Position numbers and translations under genes: made by a program
Assembly: GCF_036588685.1 (NCBI RefSeq)
Contig: NC_086375.1
Coordinates: forward strand, 55,552,001-55,616,000
Length of the DNA stretch: 64,000 nt
Reading direction: 5' to 3'
Origin: Mytilus trossulus
Lineage: Eukaryota
In this document: positions 2,787 through 37,850 of the stretch, piece by piece
Position numbering within the stretch: the first letter of the stretch is position 1
How the letters are laid out: the number at the start of each line of letters is the position of its first letter
Notes under the pieces: generated by a model
What the model was told of the DNA's origin: nothing
The model's database searches: none
Seen by the model: only the letters and a program-made list of their open reading frames with translations

Positions 2787-5076
2787 GAGCATACAATATA
2801 GTAAAAAAAAAGCATTTAATCAAGATGACTTTAAGAAGATGACTTAATTAATTTTGCGCATTGTCAAACATTTAAACTTTAGATATTATTTTTGTAAAAT
2901 AAGATTGTCACTTGTTCTTCCGTATTTGGAATAATTAAAGTCAATATATATTGGGCTTTTAACATATTTAGTTACCATAATCGCATATAGTCGTGAAGCT
3001 CTGTAAATAAAATGTCATATTTTTTACTTAACAAGGGTAATTTGGTTTATTTCATTTGCAAAATAAGATATATTAATGAATATGTATGCAGTTAAAAATG
3101 TTTTTCTGAATAATTTTAACATCCGATGTATTTTAAGACATTTTTGACAAACTAAAGATTTGAAATATACTCAGAAGTCTTAAAGTATATCAAATAATAA
3201 TACCCTTCACGTGACAGATGCATGACAATAGGACAAATCGACATCTGTGCAGCCAACAACATGCTTTGCATGGACAATTTCTCATTTAAAATAATAATCA
3301 CTTACTGCTGCTTTCTTAAAATTTTCAAAGATAAACTTATAATAAAAAGGAGAAATATATGTATTTTCATGTTTGTAGATTTTTGAGTTTTAAAAAATAT
3401 GCATTCGAAACATTCACAACAATTGTTATAACTAGGAATAAACAATTTGCATGCACTAAGTTAAGTTGTATAAATTGTAATTTCAAGTATAAATAATCCT
3501 TTATTTTGTGTAACCACTACAATTTTAAGACCCATTACAAAATCGAATGATTCCGCCGCATAACAAAAACAAAATTTAAAAGATAGCAAACTTTTATTAA
3601 CAAATAGAATAGATTTATTTTGTAACTGTTAACACTTCGTCTTTTAAAAATAAAGAAGAGTAAACAAATAAAAGCCTCAATTTATGGCGCTTTACATTGA
3701 CTTCAATATATGCATGCGATTGTTAAATTAGAATTACAATGCAACATGTATACTTATGTTAAAATACATTGTTTAACTATTGATCCTTTTAAAGTCGAAA
3801 GCAAACCGTTTTTTGTTTATATGCAATATAAGACTTTATAAATTTTAAATATCCACCATTATTTGCAAAAGGTTATGTAAACTCTGGAGTTTTCAGATAT
3901 GTTTTTTTAGAGGATGTTATTATTATTGACGCAAAGTTAAACGTTTAAATTCTCCAATTTATACAAATCTGTCGGGAGAGTTACAGGAGCAGATATATAG
4001 AAAACGAAGTACATTGCATAAATACAAGCTTCCAAAATACATAGAACAAATGACAAGCAAAACAAATACAAAAAAGAATTTCAAATCAAGAAATAAATTC
4101 CATTATGTATCATCATGTTGATAGCAAACACTAATGCCCCAAATTTTGTGCAATATGGCAACCCTGACGATGGGATAATTTAACAGTTCATAAATTAATT
4201 TGGCATATGTTTCAATATATATAATACAGCTCTCCTGATAGCTGCAAAAATAACAAACGAGCGAAATGAAAGACGAAGCATAATTAATTATTATTATTTC
4301 AAGACAAATCTATATTATCGGGTTTGGTCATTATAGTGGATTAAACATTTATCAGTAAGCTGTCAGATACAGCTCTCCTATTGTAGTTGACTGTCTGCCA
4401 CTTCAGGATAATGACTACGAGCTGCAAGCATATCTCATTGTTTCTTCAACTCTCGTGAGATGTCGTCCCTAACCATAGTCGGATTCTATTAAAATATCAT
4501 GAAATAACGGTGCCATTTAATACTGGGGATTTTCATATTTGTAATTTTGAAAAATAATCACATTAATGCCGCGACATTTATTCAGGGTTGATAATTATTA
4601 CATCAATATTAATATGTCTCTGCTTATGTAAATGGAAATTAATTTTACACAAACAATATGATCTCTGTTTTGATTACTTTAAGAAAATGAAAAAGTTGGT
4701 AAAATACTATAAAAAAAAATATATATGAAATTTCTAAGCTTTACCGAATGTTATTTTTCATCACTTCTATAATATCTTTCTAATTGTTTATTATTCAAGC
4801 TGACTTCACTCCATGTTGGACAACAGAAGGCTAGCTTTTACTGGATTAAACCCTATAGAATAACATTATATAACATACAGATGGAATAGACCGGTTGTTG
4901 AAACAACAAAATACATTTATTTTAGACCCAACAAAAAATATAAAAAACAAAGAATGCTTCCGAATAAGTTTTTCATTTTTTAAATGATGCATTGATATTG
5001 TGTCGCCATTTTTGTTTCAGATTTTGGAACTTGTGCATTTATGAAATGATTTGACAAATATTTATTTTATTTACAG

Positions 5077-5606
5077 GAGAAAAGCCGTTCCGTTGTGAAT
5101 TCGAGGGATGTGACAGGCGGTTTGCAAATAGTTCTGACAGAAAGAAACATTCACATGTTCATACCAGTGATAAACCCTATGTATGTAAGATTAGAGGTTG
5201 CGACAAGACGTATACTCACCCCAGTTCTCTCAGGAAACATATGAAAATACACGGGAACATTTCACCGAGTACCGAATTGAAAGAATCAGACGAAGAAACA
5301 AGTCCGTCTGAAGGTGACATTACTGCAAGCTCGCCACCCTCCACGAAGGAAATGAAGATTGAACAAGTGACAGGAAGTCAGGAGACTACGACTTCACCAT
5401 TATCAAATGCGTCGTCTGCCGACATTCATCGAAATGACAATGTAAGTTTAGGACAGTCCCATCAAACGAATATTAATGATTGGTACGTTTACCAAGGATC
5501 AAATCACGGACTTGCAAATTTGAGAAACGAAAACGAACATTCTGCCTTCAGTTCTATGGGACATTTATCGAACTTACATCCGCCGCCTATCGCACAATAT
5601 TCTTGA
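5077..5606 (+). CDS. Zic: Last coding exon of a Zic/odd-paired family C2H2 transcription factor (paralog A): ZF4, ZF5 and C-terminus. Exon 1 is not in this window and presumably lies upstream.
   Basis: Acceptor ttttatttacag ends at 5076. Phase-1 exon reads (G)[59 protein letters not shown]...NINDWYV...PPPIAQYS*. Diagnostic Zic ZF4/ZF5 and NEWYV-like motif. ORF 5241..5606 is only its 3' part. Confidence 0.96.
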
Positions 5607-25870: not shown

Positions 25871-25897
25871 CATGGAAGTGTATTTAATACTTCCATG
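25871..25897. mobile_element. Short CATGGAAGT...ACTTCCATG inverted-repeat remnant (putative P-superfamily footprint, degenerate)
   Basis: CATGGAAGTGTATTTAATACTTCCATG; same termini as 31218-31251; flanks GTCTAAC / GTCTCAA match at 5 of 7. Confidence 0.55.
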
Positions 25898-28041: not shown

Positions 28042-31000
28042 AATACTAGTAACGATTTGTATATGTGAATACATACACAAAGAGATTTTGTGACCTAATA
28101 TAATGAGACAGCACCACAACGAAACCAACAAACCAAAATACATACATTTTTACAGAGTTGTAATTATTATTGCTACCAAAAAAAACACACATTGCTATAA
28201 ATAAAACAATATAATCCGGTAGCAAAATTTACGATATCCTTTCATTTATTATTTTTAATCCTGGGGACATTTATATTTTGACTTGAAATCATATTGACAA
28301 TTATTCGTACTGTGTGGAGATTACTTCTCCGTCATCCAAATCCCAAATCGTGCCAGGAAGCAAAACTTCAGAGATTTTCTCACCCCTTACAATATCTGTA
28401 CAAGTACCGATCAATTTAGGAATTAAACAGCATAATCGATAATCGATATAGTATTAGTTCGTGGAAGAGGATTCTTTTTTAAAATGTAGTATAAATAAAA
28501 CGAAAAGGAACGGTCGAAATAATGAACAGAAAATATCCTATCTAGGAAATCTATTGTGACTATGAAATGTGAAATCAATAGCATTTGTTATCAATTCATT
28601 TTTCAGTTGTGTGTTGAAAACCTCGGACACATCATTCCTGTTTGCCTATGTCGTATCTGCACTGGGATTAAAGGATGAGTTTCTTTTATCTAGTACGGTA
28701 AATACATGGCAGTGTAAGATTGTCACGTTGGAGCAATCCTAGGCCGATTTTCTCTTTGATTCTAGATAACTGTCATGAAAAATTACCCCAATTCACACCA
28801 AAACCTGTTTTGTTTGCCGTAGTGTATACATATTTATCAATGTAAGCTCTTAAAAAATAAGTATAATGGTTCATACATAGGTAAAAATGCGTTAATCTAA
28901 AATACCTTTTTAATAGTCAAATATAGAACTTTCAATTTGATTGATGGATTTGAACCCAAACTAGGTTAATTTTATTTGATAGCTTTTATGTACATATTTT
29001 TAATCTAATGCACATTACTTTTCAGATATAAACGAAAATACGAATTTTCCCAATAATTCGGAAATAACTTTTATCAAGTTCTGGTTTGTATTTCTATCTT
29101 GAATAAAAAAAAATCAGACAAAAAAAATTTAGAATAACAAATCCTCTTTATGCCGACGCACAAGATGTTCAAAGAATTCACAAAATGCTTTTATTCAAAA
29201 TTAATTATATTTTGGTATCGTCGATTTAGAAATAAATCAAAGTTATGCAACAGTGGGTATCTACAACGGCTCACCAGGACAAGGGACAGATACATACTAA
29301 TAAGCATCTAATCTTTAGCTCTGTCATTCACAGTTTAAAAATATCATGGTGACTTAATTAATAAAATCTGGTTTGTAAATTAATGTGTTCCATCGTCAGA
29401 TGGTTCCCATTGCATACCATTATTGAACCCTATGGATTATTGAAATAAGTGAAAGAAATGGTATACCAGAACATATTTAATTCACTGAATATGCAATTTT
29501 AATTGACTTGCTAATTGAATCAACTAAGTATATAAGAACCCCCGTCAAGAACATGCGCGGGTTGTACATATATATGTTAATATTGGAACAGGGAGCCACG
29601 GGTTACTAATTATAAGTTTTATCATTCAGTCATGTGATTGGTGTTTTATTTTGTGTGGCTAATTAAGACCATACTTATATATAATTTGTCAAATTTGGGT
29701 TAATCTGGCGTTTCCTTCTTACGATGTCAGAGATTAAAGTCGTTATGGACATGTGGCTGAAATGAAATAAAATCGCCACTTGCTGTTGACAAGCTTAATA
29801 CGATTATTTTTTCTGGAATGTTTGTTAAATTTTTTATAGGTAAGCACAACGAAATATCCTAAAAATCTAAATCTGTTTTTAAAAGCACGCAGTCATATTT
29901 GGTGGATTATAAAAGTTTTAAGCAAACGTCATATGACTGATTATTGTGCTGGATGTATAACTTCAAGCACATACCATTTAATGCTAAAACAAAATAGCAA
30001 CAGATCGACAAGATGGGCCAGACTTTAACCTGCTACTCACATAGACTACAGGAAGATATTACGTCGCACTGGGAATTTTATTCCCACAATGATCCAAATA
30101 CTCTTTCTGTTTGTGTCGTGATCGAATTTTTAGTATGAAATTGAGAATGGAAATGGGAAATATGGCATAGAGACATATTTTGAGATATCTGTGTTATAAT
30201 AATGTATCACCAATATGCAGTTTCAGTTCGTTTTGTTTCAAAAATGAAAAATTTCCTAACGTTTTTGTAGGATACTTTCAATGTGTATGAGATTTTAAAA
30301 TAAAATACCAGAATATGTATTTCTTAGATTTTTTCAAATAATTCAGAAAACAAAACAGAAATGTGTTTTATCATATTCCTTCTTTGGGACAAACTAGACT
30401 GATGAACAGTATTTATCTGAGTTAACATCAGTCATTTTTTACATATTCAATGATCCAAAATATATTTGTTTTGCATTTGTCAAAAGTTATCACCAGAAGA
30501 AGAAGAACAGATAGAAATATCCCCATTTGAACGAAAAATGTTTTACAAGCACATTTCTGTATCAATTTGCCAATTTCGGTGTCTAAGGCCACAGACCACA
30601 ATTAATTCCTCTATTAGTTCTTTATACCTTTTTGTCTCATGAAAAAAATTGCACCGAATCTTTTTGTCAAATTTTTTGTGTGTGTAATGTATTGATTATA
30701 CTAGTCCAAACATATATCCAAAATTCAGAAAGATTGCAGTCACACATCTTAAAAATTTAGCCAATACACATCCATACCCCTATTGACAAGTCAAGAGATG
30801 TTCCGACAACTGTAAATAAGACCTTTTTGCACTTGGCCTAATCACTCATTCCATATCAAAATCAGTTTAAATACAACATCCAAAAATTTATTTCACCTTT
30901 CTTCTTTCATTTCCACCCAAAAAAATCTAGGAAATGAGTGAGGAAGGGGAAGAAAAAAAATTAAGGAAAAATACACTCTAATTAAAAGGAACTATACAAC

Positions 31001-31217
31001 AAACACACTTTTCATTTAAAAGTCAATGGCAGAATATTCCCATGCTGACGACGGTGCTAGACCCTCATGGGAAGTCAATGTTGTTACAATAACCCCGTTG
31101 TGTGAGAGAGCATAATTACTACAGTAAGTGCACTACTATCAATGAATTTTGAATTTACGATAATTGCTCTTTGAGAGCGGACCATAGAGAACCCTCCTGT
31201 TAAATGTTTAGTATAAG

Positions 31218-31251
31218 CATGGAAGTATTATATTAATATAATACTTCCATG
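31218..31251. mobile_element. Perfect 34-bp palindrome (17+17) flanked by a 7-bp direct repeat: putative P-superfamily transposon excision footprint
   Basis: CATGGAAGTATTATATT|AATATAATACTTCCATG, with GTATAAG at 31211-31217 and 31252-31258. Confidence 0.7.
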
Positions 31252-32997
31252 GTATAAGTTAGTCTCTAAATGATTGTCAATGCAACCCGTGGTACATTTA
31301 TGAACACATGTGCATTATTTTGCGTCAATACAGTAGAACTTAAATAAAGGAAAAACTAAAATAGATTGTCAAAAATCAGCTATTGCGGGGTAAATCTTTG
31401 AAGTGCAAAGGTTGTCTCATCAACGTTTATACTTTTACATATTGACAAAAATACAAGAAATATTAAATAAAAACAACTATCCAGATGTACATATACAGTT
31501 TAATTGGTACCATGTAATGTTATTATACATAGTGTATATATATGCATACCTTCGACTGTTGTTTGCTCTCTTGGTCAAGTTGTTTTCTCTTTGACATATT
31601 CCGCGTTTTCTTTCTCAATTTTATTTTATGCATAGATAAGTCCTATTATTTGTTCCTACATAATTTTTCAACGGTTATCTAGAACGGAATTCTTATTTTA
31701 TTTACATAAAAGTAAAAAACGTACGGTAATTTGTACACCTTAGACAATTTTCGTCAAAAACCGTTTGACTAAATAAATAGGCATAGGGTCCAAGGCAACT
31801 GTCGTATCCATTTCTGCAACTTCCAATTGTCACCTATATATGCCCATATGAAAATGTGGAGATGTGGTATGATTTCCAATGAGACAACTATCCACCATTG
31901 ACTATTGATAATATTTACCAAAATATTCAGAATCATGGATTGCAATCTGTATACCTTTATACCAAGGTCTAGGCATGATACAATCATCTTGTTTAGACAA
32001 TATTCACTTTCGTCTTGGTGGAGTTATCTCAATTTTCAGTAAGCAACAAATTTTCTTTCGAAAGATGTGGACTTATTTGGTATGCTGGTAATTTTTTTTA
32101 AATGTATAGAATTGAACAGAATAAAGACTAATTTCAAACATATAGTAGCAACTAATGTTTAAAACAAATAACCTTCCAATAACTGACTTTGTAAAACTGT
32201 ATCACTTCTAGAAAATAGGATAAAATTACAAAAACAATGTTGGAAAAGAGAAGTTTATAAAAAATTCAGGTTTAATAATAATCCACAATAAATTTAAAGG
32301 AATGGACCCACAATCTGTGCCTAATTTTCGAAGGTGTCGTAGAATCTGTCCTATGACATATCATAAGACACGATCTAGAATGGACAAATCGACTATCCAA
32401 ATACATAGAGCTATTCAGATTATCTTACCTAGAATGTATTCCAAAGGGGTGGACTGCAAGTATATATAACAAAAGAAAAAGAAAATAAAACTATTGATAA
32501 AAATTAACCGATGAATATAATAATAATATTGAAATAACGATAAAATATTGTTTTAAATCATATCAATAATATTAATATATTGATTATAAAAAAATATATA
32601 TATTAACTTTTTAGGAAGAACAACAAACAAACCAAATATTACTACGCAAAAAAAAAATAACTAAATTAAGTGTAAATGTCTACAACCGGGTACATCGACG
32701 GTAAAATTATATTACTTTTATCTTTTTTTTTCGGCCATCAGCAGGGAACCAACTGCATACACTTATTCAACATGATAAAATATATGTACGTAATAAAAAC
32801 AAATATTCTTAATAAGACATCTTCATTTTTCCATTTTTTATACAATGTTATAAAATTACCATTAACAATTCGGAAAATGAAATAATACTATTTATTTGAA
32901 ATAACATTATGGGATATCTCATATATATCAATAACATCACATAAACTTGATATATGATTTACCGATACACAATCCTGATTCTGCGGAAGATATTCAT

Positions 32998-33106: not shown

Positions 33107-33252
33107 TAAGCATTAACAGCGCCAAATAACAAGTGTAAAGTGTTGAAATGTAGAAATTTAACAAACTATCACCTGTTCTTGAAGAATCAGCTCTGCATGT
33201 TTACAGTTAAGCTATTGTAAATAGACAAATAAACTGGAAAATTGTCTCAATA

Positions 33253-34129
33253 ATGATTGCATCTTTCATGGATAGAAGTGACCCCCAGCATATTTCTCCA
33301 CCAGGGGTCAGTTACGGTCACCCGGAAGGAAGTATGATCCAGAACCAACAATATAATTATTACAATACTCAAGCTAATGGGTATACGGGTGCATATTCTA
33401 ATGTTAACAATATAAATTCCAGGGACTTGTTTTTAAGGCGTTCTGAATTTGGATTGCATGGATCCATGAATGAAACCAATATTCCATCTCGGACGCCCGG
33501 AATGTTATTTCATTCCCCTTCTGGATATCCTTCCCATCATCATCACCAAGATGTCAGCACACACGTTTTACTTCAGGGTCTTCATGAAGCTTCACCTTAC
33601 CATAGCTCACGCCAAAATGTGCCTCCACAATCTGGATATTTTAATATTCCTGGACATACAAGTGACATGTATTCCCGTGGTGATCAGCTTGGATACAATT
33701 CATTACCTCGTACAGAGCAGTACCATGATCATTCGCAACAATCTTTCCTCAATCACATGAACATGTTTCCGAATGGATCGTCGTCCTTTTTTCGATACAT
33801 AAGACCTCCTATAAAGCAAGAACGCACGTGTATGTGGATTGACCAAGACCAACAAGAACCTAGAAAGGCATGCAATAAAGTGTTTTACACGATGCATGAA
33901 ATTGTGAACCATATAACTATAGAACATGTTGGGGGACCAGAGCAAACGTGTCATACTTGTTTCTGGCAAGAATGTCCGCGGGAAGGACGACCTTTCAAAG
34001 CGAAATATAAACTGGTCAATCATATTAGAGTTCATACCGGAGAAAAGCCATTCCCGTGTCCGTTTCCGGGATGTGGAAAAGTTTTTGCCAGATCTGAAAA
34101 TCTCAAGATACATAAACGAATACATACGG
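33253..34129 (+). CDS. Zic: Zic/odd-paired family transcription factor, paralog B, exon 1 (ZOC motif, ZF-NC, ZF1-3)
   Basis: ZOC-like NSRDLFLRR; [16 protein letters not shown]; ZF1-3 CMW...[12 protein letters not shown]...[57 protein letters not shown]. Donor G|gtaaga at 34129/34130 (phase 1). Confidence 0.97.
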
Positions 34130-37100
34130 GTAAGAATACAAAAAATGTCTTGTATATTTCTACTGGGTTTGGACCCTTCTTTGCAAAAAGAATATGTTAT
34201 TTTTTTATTTAAATCTTGTAACAAAGCCAATTAATAAATTACCCGTCAATCTCATAAAAAGTTACTTTAATGGAAAACATTTTTAAGATATCGCAATATC
34301 TTAAATTTGAAAACACCCGAAAGAAAAGGAAATATTAAGAGTCCAACTAAGAGTTTTTAAACTCAAGAAAATTACAGAATTTTCTGAAATTTATGAAAAT
34401 CTTCGCATCAATATTTCGAATAAAAACCGTGAAAAATAACTAAAACGGATTGAAATTAGAAATGTTATAAATGCACAGATTAATCTTTCTGGTAAGAACA
34501 AATAGAAAATCACAGAACTGTGTATTTATAATTTGTTAGTCTTTATTATACTTCACATCATTTAATTGTTACACATACTTAGCAGAAAAATATTCCACAA
34601 ACGTGCAAAACATATGTATGTACCGGATTACAATTGAGCCGTATCTGGCTTCTATTTCAAACGTTCTAAAAGACTCAGATCTATATCATAATAAATATTT
34701 ATAATTTCACACCGTTTCACTTTTTGATGGCAAAATCATTAGAAGGACACAAAAGTTCGACTTAATGGTTCGTTCACTATTAGCATGTCTCAATTAAGGA
34801 ATTGACGATATATCTTAGAAATACTGTTAAAAGCATATATTTCAAAAAATTCATCAAGAAACATATTTAAGAGAGAGCATGCACATTTTGCCGTTACTAT
34901 CACAAAAATGTAAATCATGTACATTTCTCCCTTTTGACAGATGCTTTAATCATTATGTTGTGTTATGTATTGAAAAATAATTACCTTGTGAAACTGTCCC
35001 TTCTAAATTATGAAGGAGAAAAACCCTTTGTAGAGAGACTCATTACTTACATTATTCCATCGAGAGGGAATAAATGGTTTTGACAGGGAAATAAAACCTT
35101 TGATCTGAAAAAATAGAAGATTTCAAGTTAAGATATTAAACAGAATTTGTGAATATAATTACTTGCATTTTGTAATTATTTAACGTTCATGATATCATAA
35201 ATTTATTGGTTACATATTGCAAGGTTAATTCGTCCCATTGTTAGTAATAAATATTGCACTTGATTAATATTTACCGTTTTAGAAAATTCACAAAATATTT
35301 GAACCGTTATCATTTATCATACAAATATTTTAATGATTTTCAGTTTTCGATCGAGTTTTATTTTTTTAGTTTTCGTAAAATAATTATATTTAAAATTGTA
35401 TGACATACATTTTGGAACAAGTGCAGTAATTTGGTAAAACACTTTGATTCCTTTGGTTATGTATAAGGGTTATTGTGATTTGTACTGCAATGCAATATTG
35501 TTAAAATGAAGGTTTCATCTTAATTTTGTGTGAACAATTGCATTTAAAAAAACATCTTCAAATAAATTATAATAATAATCTTTTAACAAATAAGACAAAA
35601 CTTATAAAATGTGGTTCATTTATTTATGTTTCTGTCAATGATATCTTGTGGACTTAAGTTGGTCCAAATGGCTATCGGATATTTTCTAAATATGATTTAT
35701 TAAATAATCAACAAAAGGTTATCTATTTCCTTTTTGTAATCATTTCAAATAATCCCGGTTTTCATCGGTTTCCTAATTCAGAAATCAGTTCAATAGATTC
35801 TCGCGTCAATAATCTGAAAGGGTTAATCTCGTTATGTGTCAAAGTTTTAGGTTTTGCACAGCTGTTTCAAACTATGATGTTTTCTAATATAAATCCATTG
35901 CAGCTAAATATGCTTAAAACAACAAGTTTTCTCAGCGGTTTATACATGTTAAGTAGAATATTATATACCGATAAAATTCCAATCAATTTTATGTAAGTAA
36001 TCTTTTTGTTACAGTAACTCCTTCATTAACCGTTTTTGTGAAATATCTCTTATCTGTTCTTTCATGCGTTTATACCAAAAAATTCAACTCCATACTGTCA
36101 AGATTTTCACTGCGGGAGTGTCAAAGTTTGCTTAGGAATACGTAAGACCAACTGCGAGAAGAGCTAAAGTAATCAGGGAATTATGTATGTAATGAGCCAA
36201 ACTGGTCACTTCCTTTAAAAGGTCATCTGGGAATTAGTAAAGGCCGTTTAATTCTCCACGATGGCCGTTCTTAAATCATTTAGTTATGAAAGAAATCAGT
36301 TAATTGTAATTTCTGGGATGAAACACATCAATAACGGGGAACTACTTCCAATAAACTGGCATTTATCATTTTTGTTGTGCATTAGCTTTTTGGTATTTTT
36401 TTTCTTCATTTTTCATAAAATCTAAACATTCTTTTGTTATATTTATTTTACATTGTTATATAAAAATTTATTAATTACTTTGAAAATATTAAATAATAAG
36501 CAGCGTAATAAGGTTTGTGAAACATTGGATGTTATAGTATTGCGTAGTTCTCTCAATGACGAATTAACCAACCCACCTTTTAACCACAAGGATAATTATC
36601 TGAACAAATAAGATAAAAGCTATATAATAATACATTATAAACTAACAAATAGAAAAAAATATTTAAAAAAAATAGTAGAAGTGAACAATTATGACATCAG
36701 AAATAAAATATAACGTAGAATACACTTTTTAAATGTTTAAATTAATTCTTAATTTATCTATTTATTACAAAACCTCATTTGTTTTTAGTTAAGAAATGAA
36801 ATTCCTATAGAATAAATTTTTTATTAGTTTTTAACTTGTTTATAAACTATACATCTACTATTGAAATATGTCATTGGTTGTTAGTTTTTTTGTCTGTGTG
36901 TTTAGACAGATAAAGAAACTGTTTTTTATTATTCTGAATAAAACCTTTTTGTTGTGGATATGCGTAAGGATACACATTGACAAATAATTGGGATATACGC
37001 AAAACATTAAATAGATTTTAAGATTGTTTTAATTTTGTAAAAGTTTCATAGTTTATTTTTTGTTTTCATTCGTATGGTTTTTTTTTGTAATTTGTTAGAT

Positions 37101-37299
37101 TTGGTTTTTTTTTAATATACGGGAAGGGGATTTAATTATAAAACTTTGATCATACCTCTCCTGAACTTGCGTTTTTATTGAGTTGTACTCAGATATACAA
37201 AACAGAAGTTTGAATATTTTATTGAATATACAACTAGCCGAATAAATAACTCCAAAGCATATGAATGAGTTTCCTATTTACAATTATTATCTATTTCAG
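34130..37299 (+). other. 3170-bp phase-1 GT-AG intron of Zic paralog B, in the HTG|EKP linker between ZF3 and ZF4
   Basis: gtaaga...ctatttcag; joining gives HT-G(G+GT)-EKPFKC in frame. This is the intron position conserved in bilaterian Zic genes, and matches the acceptor position in paralog A. Confidence 0.93.
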
Positions 37300-37850
37300 G
37301 TGAAAAGCCCTTCAAATGTGAATTCGAGGGATGCGATAGACGATTTGCCAATAGTTCTGACAGAAAGAAGCATTCACACGTTCATACCAGTGATAAACCA
37401 TACTACTGTCGAGTACGGGGTTGTGACAAAAGTTATACACACCCAAGCTCTCTTCGGAAGCACATGAAAATTCATGGAGAAATTACACCTGCAATGGAAA
37501 AGGATGCAGAAGAAATGGCAGCCTGTGGTGCAGGAGAATCACAAACAATATCTCCAGCAAAAACAAAAACTACTTGGAATTCACCAACAGTGCTAAAAAC
37601 AGTGGACAAGAAACCAGACGTTTCAAATCTACCACTAGTCAATTCGGAACCACCGTCATCAGCGCCGGAAATTCAAAAATTAAATGACTGGTTTGTGTGT
37701 CATTCAAGGTCAACTATACCGCCATCTGTAGTTAATAAAGACCATCAGAATATGGGTTCAGTCCCCTCTCTACCAAGTGCTCCTCCACCTTTACCGTCCG
37801 TACCCACGTTACCATCGTTTCATCACATGCCTATTATGCAATATTCATAA
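37300..37850 (+). CDS. Zic: Zic paralog B, exon 2 (ZF4, ZF5, C-terminus); spliced CDS 1428 nt = 475 aa
   Basis: (G)[59 protein letters not shown]...KLNDWFVC...MPIMQYS*. Confidence 0.97.

Follow-up and report, generated by a model that had tools for sequence, protein, structure and literature searches.

A perfect palindrome near a Zic gene of Mytilus trossulus is probably the end-joining scar of an excised P-superfamily element

The window analyzed here is a 64,000-nucleotide stretch of the Mytilus trossulus genome (contig NC_086375.1, positions 55,552,001 to 55,616,000), and its subject is a perfect palindrome that lies upstream of a Zic gene, inside a 7-bp target site duplication. The results indicated that the palindrome is probably an end-joining scar, which was left when a P-superfamily transposase excised a gene-less element; the stagger of its cut is predicted at about 20 nt, and the tails were likely trimmed to 17 nt. 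Taken alone, the window locus is ordinary transposon debris; it is the family-wide pattern that carries the weight of the argument.

The palindrome and its relatives in the genome

The palindrome consists of two 17-bp arms without a loop (positions 31218 to 31251) and is placed between copies of GTATAAG at 31211 to 31217 and 31252 to 31258. No longer perfect palindrome occurs in the window, where the next best has an arm of 11 bp. Based on base composition, such a palindrome is expected 3e-5 times per 64 kb, and a palindrome together with a 7-bp duplication 5e-9 times. An earlier, sequence-only reading of this DNA had described an exact 17+17 palindrome within a 7-bp duplication, located 2 kb upstream of a Zic gene, and had expected longer elements with the same terminal inverted repeats (TIRs). 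The coordinates and sequence checked out, the first coding exon of the Zic gene, 2.0 kb downstream of the palindrome, begins near 33253, and pairs of 1.2 to 4.3 kb with these TIRs do exist and make 7-bp duplications.

The genome searched was the 1.3-Gb assembly containing the window. The 17-mer of the arm had 586 exact matches, and the reversed control had 0. In all 10 of the long pairs fetched (1.2 to 4.3 kb), the TIRs started with the arm 17-mer and ran beyond base 17 into GACAGGAACT; the 7-bp duplications were exact in seven of these elements, had one mismatch in two, and were absent in one. The family that they represent, family A, is made up of two gene-less subfamilies, and gene-less elements with a family-A-type TIR of about 30 bp spanned 1.2 to 6 kb. 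Among the 100 of 135 matches listed, ends with the full 32-nt TIR paired only at distances of at least 1.2 kb. A sister family, family B, has its first 10 bases in common with family A and has two end types, B1 and B2 (109 long ends); seven elements were seen to have one end of each type. The longest elements of both families (up to 5.9 kb) owed their length to other insertions. Family A showed features of the P superfamily, namely CA..TG-terminated TIRs on longer elements and a 7-bp target site duplication. Full-length elements of families B and A were also found to adjoin (C7:26323586-26328109 and C7:82189042-82190555), which suggests local reinsertion.

Short head-to-head loci (at most 48 bp) with the 9-bp tips numbered 411 genome-wide. 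In the 158 scar rows that we compiled, in which three nested loci were counted twice, the 7-bp duplication was exact in 110 and had at most one mismatch in 135; the corresponding family-A rows (n = 71) had 42 exact duplications and 13 with one mismatch. The rows were not a random sample: they came from the first matches listed in several searches, with 40 loci taken nearly in order and 20 family-C loci chosen from those in which both arms were intact. In the target consensus, the T at position 2 and the A at position 6 were present in 193 of 220 cases. The joins at the center of the scars were blunt, occurred via short microhomology (1 to 6 nt), or contained filler, and TIR tails were kept at the donor site inside the duplication, which is a feature of fly-type footprints. 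The modal scars were 37 bp in family A (28 of the 71 rows) and 32 bp in family B. Nothing was found between about 60 bp and 0.7 kb, the scar patterns themselves reaching at most 91 bp. A further family, family C, contributed about 1,100 scars (1113/1119 matches). We are highly confident that the palindrome in the window is an excision scar of this kind.

Population reads came from four runs of one study (X1, X3, X4, and X5). Contigs from X1, X3, and X5, one of which may be the source sample, were identical to the window from position 30967 to 31247-31249, passing the center of the palindrome by only 13 to 15 letters. X4 yielded one contig without a TIR remnant, in which a single target with two small additions was present on a diverged haplotype. 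This scar-free allele shows that the palindrome is an insertion. The sequence-only reading had proposed looking for empty and full alleles; the scar-free allele turned up in one of the four runs, and a full allele in none of them. The 37-bp scar was the commonest form in all four runs. In the scar-free contig of X4 (contig 23), the 153 bases downstream of the site differed at 24 letters and had 3 gaps, compared to 4 differences in the 243 bases upstream. A 39-bp scar type, with five letters inserted at the center (31235), had a depth of 38 to 58 in all four runs, compared to about 6 for single-copy sequence.

Arm-length limits and the inner motif

The scars retained different lengths of TIR according to end type. 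In family A, the unambiguous arms were distributed as follows: 17 nt at 4 loci, 18 at 1, 19 at 9, 20 at 16, 21 at 10, 22 at 1, 23 at 5, and 26 at 1. Arms of at least 22 nt were present at nine loci genome-wide (six at 23, two at 22, and one at 26). Among the 100 of 164 matches listed, blunt joins of the 20+20 form occurred at five loci and joins of the 21+21 form at none. A 21-nt stagger, which would give the modal scar as 37 = 21+21-5, was dropped because blunt 20+20 joins occur and 21+21 joins did not.

In family B, 21 of 22 arms of the B1 type stopped at exactly 19. The B2 arms (n = 31) stopped at 18 in 19 cases and at 19 in 11 cases, seven of which were ambiguous via microhomology, and one arm reached 24. 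When only unambiguous arms were compared, the ratio of 18 to 19 was 0:8 in B1 versus 12:4 in B2 (Fisher p 0.0013, from counts read by eye). A further Fisher value for B1 and B2, 3e-5, was discarded because part of the B1 set had been drawn by a pattern that forced an arm of 19. Eight scars in all combined the two limits: blunt 18+19 joins were exact in two cases and had one change in two others, and four scars had the form 18+2+19. Unambiguous arms in family C peaked at 20, with none longer than 22 (38 rows), and families D and F each had a limit of 18 in one scar.

The 17+17 form of the window was rare. It was found in 1 of the 158 scar rows, namely the window's own scar; long arms had been favored in the choice of part of that set. 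In a search that did not take arm length into account, none of the first 50 loci had this form. The window scar is one base off a 19+16 scar elsewhere in the genome (L310). The 17+17 form is likely a rare trimmed product, with three bases lost from each tail; a single substitution in a 19+16 scar could also give rise to it. The sequence-only reading had proposed the 17-nt cut geometry of the fly enzyme, with arms capped near 17; this part of it failed, as the family-A arms peak at 20, reach 21 to 23, and in one case extend to 26. A stagger longer than 17 nt is very likely.

In each case, the limit lay immediately 5' of an inner motif of the AGGA type. Counted from the tip, the inner AGGA is preceded by 20 bases in family A, 19 in B1, and 18 in B2, which is the scar limit of each, and in the family-C TIR AGGA follows base 20. 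Because elements that combine a B1 end with a B2 end give rise to blunt 18+19 scars, it is likely the inner motif, and not a count from the tip, that determines the position of the inner cut, and we hold this view with a fair degree of assurance. The five bases after the limit matched tip positions 3 to 7 in 26 of 30 places (six end types; best of nine shifts). When the tips were exchanged, each end's own tip beat every other pairing with the inner motif (four distinct tips; 1 of 24 permutations). We had set down an 18-nt limit for family D ahead of the result, and the sole full-length D scar had the form 18+1+18. Whether pairing between tip and motif is the reason for the position of the cut is, in our judgment, evenly balanced.

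The following sequence of events would account for the scars. An element would have inserted at GTATAAG and duplicated it, as is seen for the family. A transposase would then have made one strand cut at the tip and a second, on the opposite strand, within the TIR, as in the fly, to leave a single-stranded 3' TIR tail on each flank, and end joining would have fused the tails bluntly, via 1 to 6 nt of microhomology, or with filler, as the scar shapes suggest. The inner cut would fall just 5' of the AGGA-type motif, with a predicted tail of 20 nt for A, 19 for B1, 18 for B2, 20 for C, and 18 for D and F ends. The limits themselves are counts; that they mark cut sites is what we infer from them. 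Because the post-cut bases resemble tip positions 3 to 7, the new 5' end may base-pair with the 3' tip of the opposite strand, with a loop between the two that would absorb the difference in length, as in the fold-back seen in the fly complex. The fly P transposase makes its 5' cut 17 bp inside the TIR, the mechanism and order of cleavage being described as unknown; its helix-turn-helix (HTH) domain binds to the inner TIR half, and the transferred strand forms a loop and folds back to pair with the 5' part of its partner strand (PMC7776569). In the fly TIR printed in PMC11368186, AGG directly follows base 17. It may be true of P-superfamily transposases in general that they nick before an inner copy of the tip, which pairs with the tip of the transferred strand, so that the stagger is set by the DNA and is predictable from the TIR; we would give this idea the same weight as its opposite.

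P-type transposases and alternative explanations

P-type transposases were abundant in the genome, with 20 matches to PF21788 and 51 to PF21787, and such family searches for transposases give lower bounds. The TIRs of family C bound a 10.6-kb element (G000:C12:49652222-49662777) that has a 7-bp duplication and carries an intron-split transposase with PF21787, PF21788, and PF21789, including the RNase H DDE core and its GTP-binding insertion. For a sister of this transposase, the sole PDB match was the fly P transposase (6P5A, E 4e-14), with three acidic residues aligned. Scars of the CATGGAAGT type (A or B) and of the C or F type were found in tandem in one triplicated 7-mer at three loci. The link between family A and P-type transposases was drawn because of the likeness of the TIRs and the shared targets, and a P-type enzyme very probably made the scar. 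The sequence-only reading had proposed an active P/THAP9-type family. The P part of this proposal is supported by P-type transposases in the genome that have related TIRs and share the target; none was present between the exact TIRs at the 32 P-type loci read, and no THAP domain was found in two linked elements. A hAT-type origin was set aside because hAT-type enzymes are not known to leave any TIR at the donor site.

Several results weigh against the interpretation given above. The family-A limit is soft: arms of 21 are common and arms of 23 were found six times, which a stagger of 21 or 23 nt followed by trimming could also produce. The modal scar of 37 bp is equally compatible with tails of 20, 21, or more nt. 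The family A and B scar sets were drawn by patterns that demanded one long arm. No allele with a full element at the locus was seen in the four runs. No transposase gene was present between CATGGAAGT TIRs at 32 P-type loci, all of which had other TIRs or none (both 10-kb flanks were covered at 28 of these loci and a single flank at 4); likewise, no transposase remnant was found in 50 family A/B element loci. No THAP domain was detected in 61 frames (at least 55 aa) of two linked elements or by a motif scan, which a THAP domain split over short exons would escape. In the case of the inner motif, a free search for tip repeats in single TIRs was mostly not significant (p 0.03 to 0.98), and the offset that it chose for B1a, B2, and D was a different one. 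Another match to the tip lies 4 bases further upstream and scored 17 of 30. Furthermore, the 5-base window was chosen after looking, the families share ancestry, and D and F are represented by one scar each.

Other explanations of the arm lengths were considered alongside the motif-placed cut. A fly-type fixed stagger of 17 nt would explain why the window scar is exactly 17+17 with an overlap of 0, given that the fly enzyme cuts 17 nt in, and the longer arms elsewhere would then be products of partial resynthesis. However, arms of 18 to 21 were the rule in all families examined, with sharp and family-specific limits, blunt 20+20, 19+19, and 18+19 joins occur, and both the absence of 17+17 from the 50 loci and the one-base distance from the L310 scar speak against it. 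For the family, a 17-nt stagger is already largely refuted, and for the window scar it is very unlikely. A fixed ruler, in which each family's own transposase counts 18, 19, or 20 (or 21 to 23) nt from the tip and the inner motif is only a binding site, seems somewhat less improbable, though still unlikely: the genome does contain several distinct transposase families, family A has arms of 21 and 23, and B2 has four to five unambiguous arms of 19. What counts against a ruler is that 18+19 joins come from single elements in which a B1 end is combined with a B2 end and that unambiguous arms of 18 made up 0 of 8 in B1 versus 12 of 16 in B2.

Extreme internal deletions, caused by abortive gap repair or arising across the TIR stem, might have shrunk elements to their tips, in which case the lengths would reflect microhomology rather than cuts. 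The modal scars (37 bp in A and 32 bp in B) do lie on self-complementary stretches, a few arms reach 22 to 26, and excision of the fly P element is often followed by partial resynthesis (PMC2895639). Against this, the TIRs run for 27 to 32 nt yet the arms stop at 18 to 21, many joins are blunt or contain filler, and the gap between about 60 bp and 0.7 kb is empty; we consider such deletions a poor explanation, about on a par with the 17-nt stagger. Finally, the 30- to 45-bp palindromes might be mini-elements that transpose themselves, so that their number would record amplification and not excision. The presence of the same 37-mer at many different targets is consistent with this idea (28 of 71 family-A rows are 37 bp), and an insertion of any kind would account for the scar-free allele. 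Against it, each family has dozens of different junctions, and the scars are without the inner TIR half that is bound by the HTH domain of the fly enzyme (PMC7776569). We consider this idea the least probable of the explanations and give it hardly any credence. An excision with an inner cut placed by the motif is the reading that we retain.

The coordinates of the features are collected in Table 1. The decayed second scar lies 5.3 kb upstream of the first. The window contains two Zic genes in tandem on the + strand, with exons at 5055-5606, 33211-34212, and 37269-37850. The tandem scars of two families were located at L310:46-131, L249:1501-1577, and L250:1501-1586 and point to repeated in-register insertion at the same target. 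The P-type elements with 7-bp duplications (L071-L088) were 8.6 to 13 kb long and had no THAP match. These elements carried a second convergent open reading frame (ORF) of 350 to 430 aa with a C2H2 finger and a weak match to PF12596, a family of P transposase C-termini (E 0.064), which possibly points to a split transposase. Another P-type group had CACAGG ends, 8-bp duplications, and a length of about 8 kb; its convergent ORF encoded a PIF1 helicase of 1,050 to 1,100 aa with a PHD finger (E 3e-31 and 6e-25).

TABLE 1 Coordinates of scar features in the window and of P-type elements elsewhere in the genome
Feature	Coordinates	Strand	Remarks
7-bp target site duplication, left copy (GTATAAG)	31211..31217	.	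Fits target consensus (G/A/C)T-N-N-N-A(C/T/G) from 110 exact duplications
Left arm	31218..31234	+	Outer 17 nt of family-A TIR; in long elements the TIR runs on to about 27-32 nt
Right arm	31235..31251	-	Outer 17 nt of opposite TIR; joined without microhomology or filler (overlap 0)
7-bp target site duplication, right copy	31252..31258	.	
Decayed second scar, 27 bp	25871..25897	.	Same 9-bp tips; flanking 7-mers mismatch at 2 places
First coding exon of Zic gene	33253..34209	+	Context only; zf_ZIC E 2e-24
P-type elements with 7-bp duplications	C12:49652222-49662777, C14:4523173-4533064, C6:57829444-57842527, C5:63071198-63082007		
PIF1 helicase ORFs in CACAGG-end elements	L265:4678-7995, L280:4902-8114		Similar in L279 and L090

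Meaning of the scars and comparison with known systems

The palindrome upstream of the Zic gene is transposon debris and not a regulatory element, and its position implies no function near Zic. More generally, the scars mark palindromic insertions of 30 to 45 bp as transposon debris and are traces of earlier excision at more than 1,500 genomic sites. If the limits are cut sites, then natural end variants show what positions the inner cut. Stagger length would then be readable from genomic scars, with well over a thousand records from a THAP-less, two-gene lineage. Among the papers accessible to our literature search, none on the cut depth of P-type enzymes outside the fly was found, and one may have been described earlier.

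The closest counterpart is the P element of Drosophila melanogaster (6P5A/6PE2). Its tails are 17 nt, and its excision junctions are blunt, formed via microhomology, or contain filler (PMC2895639, Tables 1 to 3). The elements described here resemble it in their CA..TG termini, in a TIR of about 30 bp, in donor-site tails that are joined in the same junction classes, in the AGG that follows the inner cut, and in linked transposases with RNase H and GTP-binding domains. They differ from it in a 7-bp rather than an 8-bp duplication, in limits of 18 to 20 rather than 17 that differ between the ends of one element, in that no THAP domain was found in the linked elements, and in the length of those elements (8.6 to 13 kb) and their second convergent gene.

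Galileo and 1360, which belong to the P superfamily, likewise make 7-bp duplications (PMC4168063 and PMC3698922), and the Galileo consensus GTANTAC is close to the target consensus found here (PMC4168063). In contrast to the long TIRs of Galileo, those described here are short (27 to 32 bp). The word "footprint" is absent from these two papers. The assignment of noncoding elements of about 1 kb to the P superfamily via their ends has a precedent in BuT5, which lacks genes and depends on a divergent P element for its movement (PMC3698922); the autonomous partner is known for BuT5, whereas none was found here in 32 P-type loci. Zebrafish Pdre2 and THAP9 (PMC10983969) provide another parallel, as P-type elements outside insects with many internally deleted copies, although Pdre2 has TIRs of 13 bp and makes duplications of 8 bp.
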